NCBI RefSeq assembly: GCF_003334785.1
Contig: NZ_QOWV01000009.1
Reading direction: 5' to 3' (one strand)
DNA from: Escherichia coli
Lineage (GTDB): Bacteria; Pseudomonadota; Gammaproteobacteria; Enterobacterales; Enterobacteriaceae
DNA: 64,000 nucleotides
Below the pieces are notes generated by a model. The model saw nothing but the letters and a program-made list of their open reading frames with translations, was not told where the DNA came from and made no database searches. This document shows positions 55,354 to 55,968 of the stretch, one piece after another. Both the position numbers and the translations under genes were made by a program. Position 1 is the stretch's first letter; every line of letters begins with the position of its first letter.

Positions 55354-55968
55354 GATTGTCTGCTCCCCTGTCTTGTTATGGGAGCAGTATTCAGGAATAA
55401 AAACATTCATTAAAAGAATTAGTCGTTATCGCACAGATGATTTTATTCTTAGCAAAAAAACGGCTAAGGAAAGATTAAATATGCAATTACTCCGTTCTAA
55501 CAATTGGGAAAATTACTACACTTCATTTTAGTGATGCATAAACAACCACATTACGAGATTTATTACTTCATTATTTCTATCAATATCAATACATATAATA
55601 AAACTATTATATTCGCATTGTATATATCACTGTATCATTCTCAATCACTCGCATATTACATTCACATAATGTATATAAACAATGCTTGTTCACAGAACAT
55701 ATTTTTTAAATGCAATTAATTGACAAACTAAATCACATCTAAATACAATGTATAAAACAAAATAACTATACATACCAAACATACAAACACTTAACATATG
55801 AATTGCATAGAAACATTACCCAGTCGAACCCACGGGTCTGAAAGCCCTTGCTTTTCAGTTATTAGCAACATTTAACATTTATAAATTAACATCTGGCTGC
55901 GCCAGAGATTACGTCTCTGAGTGCATCGTTGTGCTTGTAGTATAATAAATAAAATGGAGTGTCATTAA

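Follow-up and report, generated by a model that had tools for sequence, protein, structure and literature searches.

The spacer lies at positions 55354-55968 of a 64-kb window, the stretch of Escherichia coli DNA analysed here, which is inverted with respect to the K-12 map. It separates two divergent genes. On the minus strand, tauA (54391..55353, ATG at 55353) encodes the taurine ABC transporter binding protein and is the first gene of tauABCD, according to the ORF list and the RefSeq annotation of the identical K-12 sequence. On the plus strand, yaiS begins with a GTG at 55969. The intervening 615 bp match E. coli K-12 MG1655 at 615/615 bases (exact string match), so published K-12 data apply directly to this DNA. 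The MG1655 RefSeq counterpart is found at 384617-385231 with the same gene arrangement, and the RefSeq annotations of MG1655 and DH5alpha contain no gene, sRNA or small protein between tauA and yaiS.

The yaiS-yaiP-yaiX-yaiO cluster (55969..59180, plus strand) consists of ORFs that overlap or are separated by gaps of at most 9 nt. Their RefSeq products are a PIG-L deacetylase (yaiS), a GT2 glycosyltransferase (yaiP), a yaiX-like acetyltransferase and the outer-membrane barrel YaiO. Because the genes are so tightly packed, the spacer is their only control region. Coding GC across yaiS-yaiO is 0.44-0.50. In GTDB, sampled at one genome per species, the nearest YaiS outside E. coli comes from a single Citrobacter (81% identity), which carries the same four-gene cluster at a different locus; the next relative is found in Stenotrophomonas at 48% identity. 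The patchy distribution within E. coli, the different island at this position in O157-type genomes and the Citrobacter copy located elsewhere support horizontal acquisition of yaiS-yaiO. The region upstream of yaiS in Citrobacter FP75 (412 nt, GC 0.35) is also AT-rich and has no consensus-like promoter. We found no sequence homology between it and the E. coli spacer, which shows that the spacer architecture of E. coli did not belong to the cluster ancestrally.

PGAP "incomplete" flags raised the possibility that yaiS is decaying in many lineages. This is rejected, as SW070910, ZLWT and NCTC9040 all have an open 223-codon ORF, and a stop in yaiS occurs only in K-12.

Composition of the spacer and its published occupancy

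The gap was initially annotated as unusually long and AT-rich, and both properties are borne out. At 615 bp and GC 0.304 it has the lowest GC content in the 64-kb window, with values of 0.24-0.27 across 55400-55800. The lowest-GC 300-nt window of the 64 kb falls within it (0.24; mean 0.511, sd 0.054), placing the core of the spacer about 5 sd below the window mean, and the lowest-GC 615-nt window coincides with the spacer region (0.296). When genes are modelled crudely from ORFs across the window, the spacer ranks third in length among 57 gaps (median 77 nt) and is the most AT-rich of the long ones. The core (~55492-55815, GC 0.25) is very rich in TpA steps, which occur at 0.14/nt as compared to 0.047 +/- 0.018 for the window. 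This density is roughly three times that found elsewhere in the window, exceeds the mean by 5 sd and ranks 4th of 6370 windows. No repeats are found in the spacer beyond short pairs at chance level.

Promoter-like motifs are correspondingly dense. The pattern TANNNT occurs 28 times per 300 nt (6.5 +/- 4.2 across the window), which is the window maximum, and sigma-70-like sites reach 11 per 300 nt (1.8 +/- 2.0 across the window). When the spacer itself is shuffled with preservation of dinucleotides, 3.7 promoter-like sites are expected and 3 are observed. The density is thus no higher than in the shuffles and is a by-product of base composition that adds no signal of its own.

The spacer is a published promoter island. 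It appears as entry 383994_309, yaiS(-)/tauA(+), one of 78 islands in Table 1 of Panyukov & Ozoline 2013 (PMC3661553). Converted from MG1655 v2 coordinates, the island corresponds to 55507..55815, the AT- and TpA-rich, H-NS-bound core. The same secondary compilation gives the entry H-NS code "A", meaning bound in all compiled ChIP-chip studies, and ties it to predicted foreign genes in three data sets. As a class, promoter islands bind RNA polymerase and form open complexes, yet yield almost no long RNA. Given the shuffle result, the "island" label may mean no more than AT-richness.

Independent evidence for occupancy comes from genomic SELEX. Shimada et al. (PMC3946193) report an RpoD-holoenzyme peak and an H-NS site mark in the tauA/yaiS spacer, and propose two constitutive promoters, TTGACA-18-TACAAT directed to yaiS and TTGAGA-16-TACAAT directed to tauA. 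These are the two best sites of our own sigma-70 scan. An RpoS-holoenzyme SELEX peak (v2 383868) converts to ~55941, at the TATAAT closest to yaiS. The suggestion of nucleoid-protein silencing made in the initial annotation therefore agrees with what is already documented for this spacer, namely its status as an island bound by H-NS in compiled ChIP-chip data (PMC3661553) and its H-NS SELEX site. The high-affinity H-NS motif TCGATAAATT has only two matches in the spacer, each with 2 mismatches (55714-55723 and 55878-55887), a level that is common throughout the window. A literature search returned no derepression data for yaiS or tauA in an hns mutant, and both genes are absent from the supplements of a sigma-network study.

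Conservation and drift between haplotypes

Of 5426 complete E. coli genomes searched, 5419 have at least a partial match to the query, and the full-length spacer with yaiS (at least 80% of the query) is present in 4249. A second haplotype, with 80-90% identity, accounts for about 1040 genomes. Approximately 1170 genomes have in common only tauA and the 38 nt upstream of it. In O157:H7, a different island adjoins tauA (response regulator, MASE1 kinase and uhpC-like genes), and the gap upstream of tauA in O157-type genomes measures 302 bp with GC 0.44. In O157-type strains the difference extends to the entire island.

Six alleles of the K-12-type spacer were aligned, and their divergence was compared with that of the neighbouring genes. 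Between haplotypes, the whole spacer differs by 12.7-14.0%; synonymous differences amount to 0.11-0.18 in tauA/tauB and 0.06-0.10 in yaiP. Spacer divergence thus approximates the synonymous rate, indicating that most of the spacer drifts at about the neutral rate. Its GC content is 0.30-0.31 in all six alleles despite the ~13% divergence, which means that composition has been kept even where the sequence has changed. Constraint on sequence is limited to three blocks of the 615 bp, at 55354-55479, 55720-55749 and 55930-55968. Two further blocks are hypervariable. The first (55480..55600) is AT-rich and contains indels, with 22-25% of positions substituted and 11 alignment columns gapped between haplotypes, and no recognisable element. 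The second (55810..55869) diverges by 25-29% and contains a weak hairpin, CTGAAAG...CTTTTCAG.

The block adjoining tauA (55354..55479, minus strand, ~125 nt) would comprise the tauA leader and the CysB/Cbl-dependent promoter region. It includes the tauA Shine-Dalgarno sequence GGGGAG (55363-55368, minus strand), the palindrome CTTAGC-N9-GCTAAG (55448-55468) and a weak promoter-like site, TTAGCC-16-TAAAAT (55467-55440, minus strand). Only 3-5 differences separate the haplotypes in these 126 nt (2.4-4.0%, compared with ~13% over the whole spacer), and this conservation has P <= 7e-5 against a neutral rate of 15%. The tau control region that the initial annotation expected on the minus strand of the gap is accordingly placed in this block. 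The tauA transcription start and the Cbl/CysB footprints have reportedly been mapped. A diverged but recognisable homolog of the block lies upstream of tauA in O157-type genomes and shares its motifs, and the O157-type tau promoter is strongly diverged from 38 nt upstream of the tauA ATG. A review citing van der Ploeg 1997 describes tauABCD as a sulfate-starvation operon activated by CysB and Cbl.

The second tauA-facing candidate, TTGAGA-16-TACAAT (55617..55644, minus strand), was identified by the sigma-70 scan and is the site proposed in PMC3946193. In the second haplotype its -10 element reads TGCAAT, with loss of the key A at position 2. This loss suggests that the site is probably not a maintained promoter.

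Intergenic regions can be switched between strains by horizontal transfer of regulatory sequence. The present spacer resembles such cases in that its two haplotypes are 12-14% apart (84-88% identical) while yaiS-yaiO is 97-99% identical. It differs from them in that its divergence matches the synonymous divergence of the tau genes (pS 0.11-0.18). A switch between the two haplotypes is rejected, as synonymous divergence in tauA/tauB is just as high. Judging from the alignments, neutral drift together with a recombination breakpoint near the yaiS start would explain the haplotype difference, and no regulatory swap is needed.

Candidate promoters facing yaiS and the predicted leader

Two conserved elements point towards yaiS. 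The proximal region (55930..55971, plus strand) combines a promoter with the translation start and features TATAAT (55941-55946), GGAG (55956-55959) and the GTG (55969-55971), with the TATAAT positioned 22 nt before the GTG. Its upstream portion, 55930-55968, shows 0-1 differences in 39 nt across haplotypes. The TATAAT had been singled out in the initial annotation as the yaiS promoter on the plus strand, and this candidate is invariant, or nearly so, across haplotypes. The stronger distal site, TTGACA-18-TACAAT, went unmentioned there.

This distal site (55720..55749, plus strand) is a near-consensus sigma-70 promoter with 11/12 matches, recovered by the sigma-70 scan and proposed in PMC3946193. 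Like the proximal region, it is conserved, with 0-1 differences in 30 nt across haplotypes. Its predicted start at ~55756 would give a leader of ~213 nt. The genome-wide transcription start set of Kim 2012 places no start inside the spacer; the start it assigns to yaiS, supported by 2 reads, is at 55335 (plus strand), within tauA and antisense to it. The lack of a start at the distal promoter under standard growth (Kim 2012) fits silencing.

The beginning of the putative distal leader (55756..55830, plus strand) is C/A-rich and depleted of G (GC skew -0.54). The overlapping interval 55717-55796 contains 16 C and 2 G on the plus strand, where no other part of the window has so high a C/G ratio. 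From base composition, we infer that the G-poor stretch 55756-55830 may be a rut-like Rho-loading region. Further downstream, about 25 nt upstream of the proximal -10, is the palindrome CAGAGA-TTACG-TCTCTG (55903..55919). It is kept in 6/6 alleles, with a single A-to-G change that preserves G-U pairing, and is possibly a regulator site or a leader hairpin.

A RegulonDB listing, cited in PMC3118216, describes yaiS as sigma-54-dependent. We searched for the consensus TGGCAC-N5-TTGCA with its GG and GC elements. The sole match in the spacer (55792-55807) has 3 mismatches and lacks the GG, and a sigma-54 promoter of yaiS in the spacer is therefore rejected. The best sigma-54-like match, with 2 mismatches, falls inside yaiS (56067-56082), and yaiS is absent from the supplements of a sigma-54 ChIP-seq study.

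Interpretation and relation to known systems

The spacer is probably a control region of composite make-up that borders a horizontally acquired cluster, an H-NS-silenced promoter island that harbours no hidden gene. The anatomy, composition, conservation pattern and cluster distribution behind this reading were established here; the literature supplies the occupancy by H-NS, the binding of RNA polymerase, the low transcript output and the dependence on CysB/Cbl. The 125 nt next to tauA would supply the tauABCD leader and an activator-dependent (CysB/Cbl) sulfate-starvation promoter. In the core (~55490-55815), RNA polymerase would be bound at many promoter-like sites under a coat of H-NS, consistent with the published occupancy. 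Output towards yaiS would come from the near-consensus sigma-70 promoter within the core (55720-55749) and from the second conserved region at 55930-55971. H-NS filaments over the core would keep yaiS-yaiP-yaiX-yaiO silent under ordinary growth. Any transcript escaping from the distal promoter would begin with a G-poor, unstructured and untranslated leader, which would make termination by Rho more likely and so add a second lock. Elsewhere in the spacer, constraint would act on composition and not on sequence. In terms of the initial annotation, the tau and yaiS promoter regions and the silencing, the latter already documented, are retained; the hidden gene is not.

A rival account grants the spacer two ordinary promoters and regards the remainder as functionless, neutrally drifting filler at an island junction, AT-rich only by mutation bias and bound by H-NS incidentally. 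It is consistent with the overall divergence at the synonymous rate, the two hypervariable blocks with their indels and the shuffle-level density of promoter-like sites, as well as with O157-type strains, which manage tauA with a 302-bp spacer of GC 0.44. However, filler does not account for a GC that stays within 0.30-0.31 although the alleles have diverged at 13% of sites, or for a near-consensus promoter conserved in the middle of the spacer. The recurrence of the region as an H-NS and RNA polymerase target in separate studies also speaks against filler, and we consider it unlikely. The two accounts agree on the physical events and differ mainly in whether silencing has been selected for.

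We see only a slim chance that the spacer acts as a conditional switch, built from the 55720-55749 promoter, the G-depleted leader and a 25-codon ORF, or that a related coupling of H-NS and Cbl operates on tauABCD. In the former case, translation of the leader ORF or an anti-silencer might block Rho loading, and some signal would open yaiS-yaiP-yaiX-yaiO. In the latter, H-NS on the spacer might set the induction threshold of tauABCD, with CysB/Cbl acting partly as anti-silencers. The idea of coupling arises because the spacers of both Cbl-dependent operons (tauA and ssuE) and of cysB are on the promoter-island list (PMC3661553).

The initial annotation also allowed for a small RNA or small protein concealed in the gap, and neither was recovered. 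An independent sRNA gene, for example one running from the 55720-55749 promoter to the hairpin at 55838-55858, is very improbable. The conserved near-consensus promoter, the fairly conserved 60 nt that follow it (87% invariant columns) and a hairpin with a short U-containing tail ~100 nt downstream speak for such a gene. However, an Rfam scan of 55000-56300 (E <= 10) gives no match in the spacer and only chance-level matches outside it, and the MG1655 annotation lists no sRNA there. The hairpin contains 2 G-C pairs, lacks a T-run on its downstream side, is broken in 2/6 alleles and fails the terminator scan, which finds no terminator in the spacer on the plus strand and one weak terminator-like site on the minus strand. 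Past 55810 the sequence is hypervariable. The minimum free energy of the putative distal leader (55756-55985) is -42.1 kcal/mol, no better than that of shuffles (-39.7 +/- 4.2 kcal/mol, z -0.58). On the transcript side, one published start set offers no start inside the spacer (Kim 2012), and the supplements of a Term-seq study list no 3' ends for yaiS or tauA.

A small protein or regulatory leader peptide for yaiS is similarly implausible. The candidate is the 25-codon ATG ORF MNCIETLPSRTHGSESPCFSVISNI (55798..55875, plus strand), which lies within the putative distal leader after unstructured A/C-rich sequence and is open at the same length in 4/5 other alleles even though it occupies the most variable block. 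However, it is kept open only through two compensating 1-nt indels, so that the haplotypes read its middle in different frames, and APEC E956 carries a disrupted copy. Compared with an allele that is 98% identical, 6/25 residues are changed and the substitutions are nearly all non-synonymous. It is also unannotated, though small-protein surveys annotated the neighbouring ykiC. The ORF lacks a Shine-Dalgarno sequence, as do all 20 ORFs of at least 10 codons in the spacer, none of which is conserved at the protein level, and we judge that it is not a gene. Six of the 19 other small ORFs are open in all five other alleles; they span 10-40 codons and bear no sign of being genes.

Finally, that the distal promoter feeds a long structured 5' leader, a riboswitch or attenuator sensing a ligand for the polysaccharide-modification genes, is scarcely credible: the possible length of ~213 nt and local hairpins in most alleles (55838-55858 and 55903-55919) are set against the z-score of -0.58, compensatory changes in 2/50 pairs of the consensus fold (covariation term -1.2 kcal/mol), the lack of an Rfam family and a Citrobacter ortholog without a homologous leader.

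The silencing spacer is thus an ordinary, catalogued case that is already known and published. The present analysis adds a footprint map, in which constraint on sequence is confined to three short stretches of the 615 bp while composition is conserved throughout, and the observation that the "promoter island" signal of this spacer is fully explained by composition. The locus provides a clean example of an acquired operon parked behind an AT-rich, H-NS-coated stretch beside a core-metabolism promoter. If the leader switch or the Cbl/H-NS coupling were true, either would help to establish when yaiSPXO, an uncharacterised cluster, is expressed.

Among known systems, the block next to tauA is assigned to the CysB/Cbl-activated sulfate-starvation promoters, those of tauABCD and ssuEADCB (van der Ploeg 1997, 1999). 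The ssuE/elfA spacer is likewise on the promoter-island list (PMC3661553). A Cbl/CysB promoter, however, covers only ~125-200 of the 615 bp.

The spacer as a whole corresponds to the promoter islands (Shavkunov et al. 2009; PMC3661553). Their defining feature, promoter-like sites packed densely over 300 bp or more, is present here, as judged by surrogate scans. The other shared traits are RNA polymerase binding, little productive transcription and H-NS occupancy, all according to the literature, and adjacency to acquired genes. There is no difference in kind, but the density of sites in this spacer is what composition predicts, and most of this island evolves at the neutral rate, one embedded promoter excepted.

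H-NS silences AT-rich acquired DNA, and Rho reportedly provides a second silencing layer for such DNA. The spacer fits the first pattern as a low-GC, TpA-rich control region, with reported H-NS binding, placed before a patchy cluster of lower GC. The putative distal yaiS leader is G-poor, in keeping with what Rho substrates would show. In contrast to this pattern, the GC of the yaiS-yaiO coding sequence (0.44-0.50) falls just slightly short of the genome average, and the extreme AT-richness is confined to the spacer.

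Two forms of the tauA promoter

The K-12-type and O157-type genomes share an identical sequence upstream of tauA for only a short distance, with identity ending 38 nt before the ATG (window 55391; compared with L003:4055-4356, the 302-bp gap upstream of tauA in an O157-type genome). Past this point, the O157-type tau promoter can be recognized as no more than a diverged homolog, with common motifs that include TTGCCGATTTTTTTCTAAA and TCATGCATCAC. E. coli thus has two very different alleles of the tauA promoter. The neighboring genes also differ, as the O157-type locus is flanked by a different island carrying a response regulator, a MASE1 sensor kinase, and a uhpC-like gene.

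Coding and regulatory elements at yaiS

The 223-codon yaiS gene is intact in the window (55969-56640). MG1655 and DH5alpha carry a TAG at codon 186 (Q186*; window 56524-56526), which results in the annotated YaiS of 185 aa. In SW070910, ZLWT, and NCTC9040, PGAP labels the intact yaiS as "incomplete, missing C-terminus"; this is an annotation artefact, because the 223-codon ORF is open in each of these strains. The only small-protein gene near the spacer is ykiC (56506-56625, minus strand), which lies outside the gap, antisense to the full-length yaiS ORF and entirely within its 3' end. Its 39-aa product has been validated via epitope tagging (PMC6001520).

A perfect palindrome, CAGAGA-TTACG-TCTCTG (55903-55919), precedes the yaiS-proximal TATAAT by ~25 nt. 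Present in all six of the alleles examined, it represents a candidate regulator site. A second element, the sigma-54-like TGGCGCATCGCTTGCT (56067-56082, plus strand), has two mismatches and correct GG/GC spacing, and falls within the yaiS coding sequence, 99 nt from its beginning. RegulonDB lists a "yaiS sigma-54 promoter", of which this intragenic element may be the origin; it is absent from the accessible portion of the supplements to a sigma-54 ChIP-seq study.

Insertion sequences

Insertion sequences appear to target the tauA/yaiS locus. Among the compared strains NCTC9040 (L007), AR_0162 (H5), and 2018-10-1CC (L004), two have IS1 at the 5' end of tauA, and the third has an IS1-associated deletion that extends from window position 55578 through yaiS. 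An IS5 insertion into yaiS has also been reported from a laboratory evolution study. The IS2 that splits yaiX in MG1655 is missing from the window (57996 onward), and the acetyltransferase gene (57695/57824-58405) is therefore intact. The window strain is K-12-like in the spacer, yet it is not MG1655.

Other AT-rich gaps and promoter islands

Two further long, AT-rich divergent gaps are found in the window, at 50335-50824 (490 nt, GC 0.32, promoter-like site density of 14 per 300 nt) and 40169-40922 (754 nt, GC 0.38). These may be additional H-NS-type spacers. Our literature search found no paper tying H-NS to tau or ssu expression. Published promoter islands are located at yaiS/tauA and ssuE/elfA, that is, at both Cbl-dependent operons, and also at cysB/ymiA (Table 1, PMC3661553). 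We noticed post hoc that sulfur-regulon loci account for 3 of the 78 promoter islands in that study.
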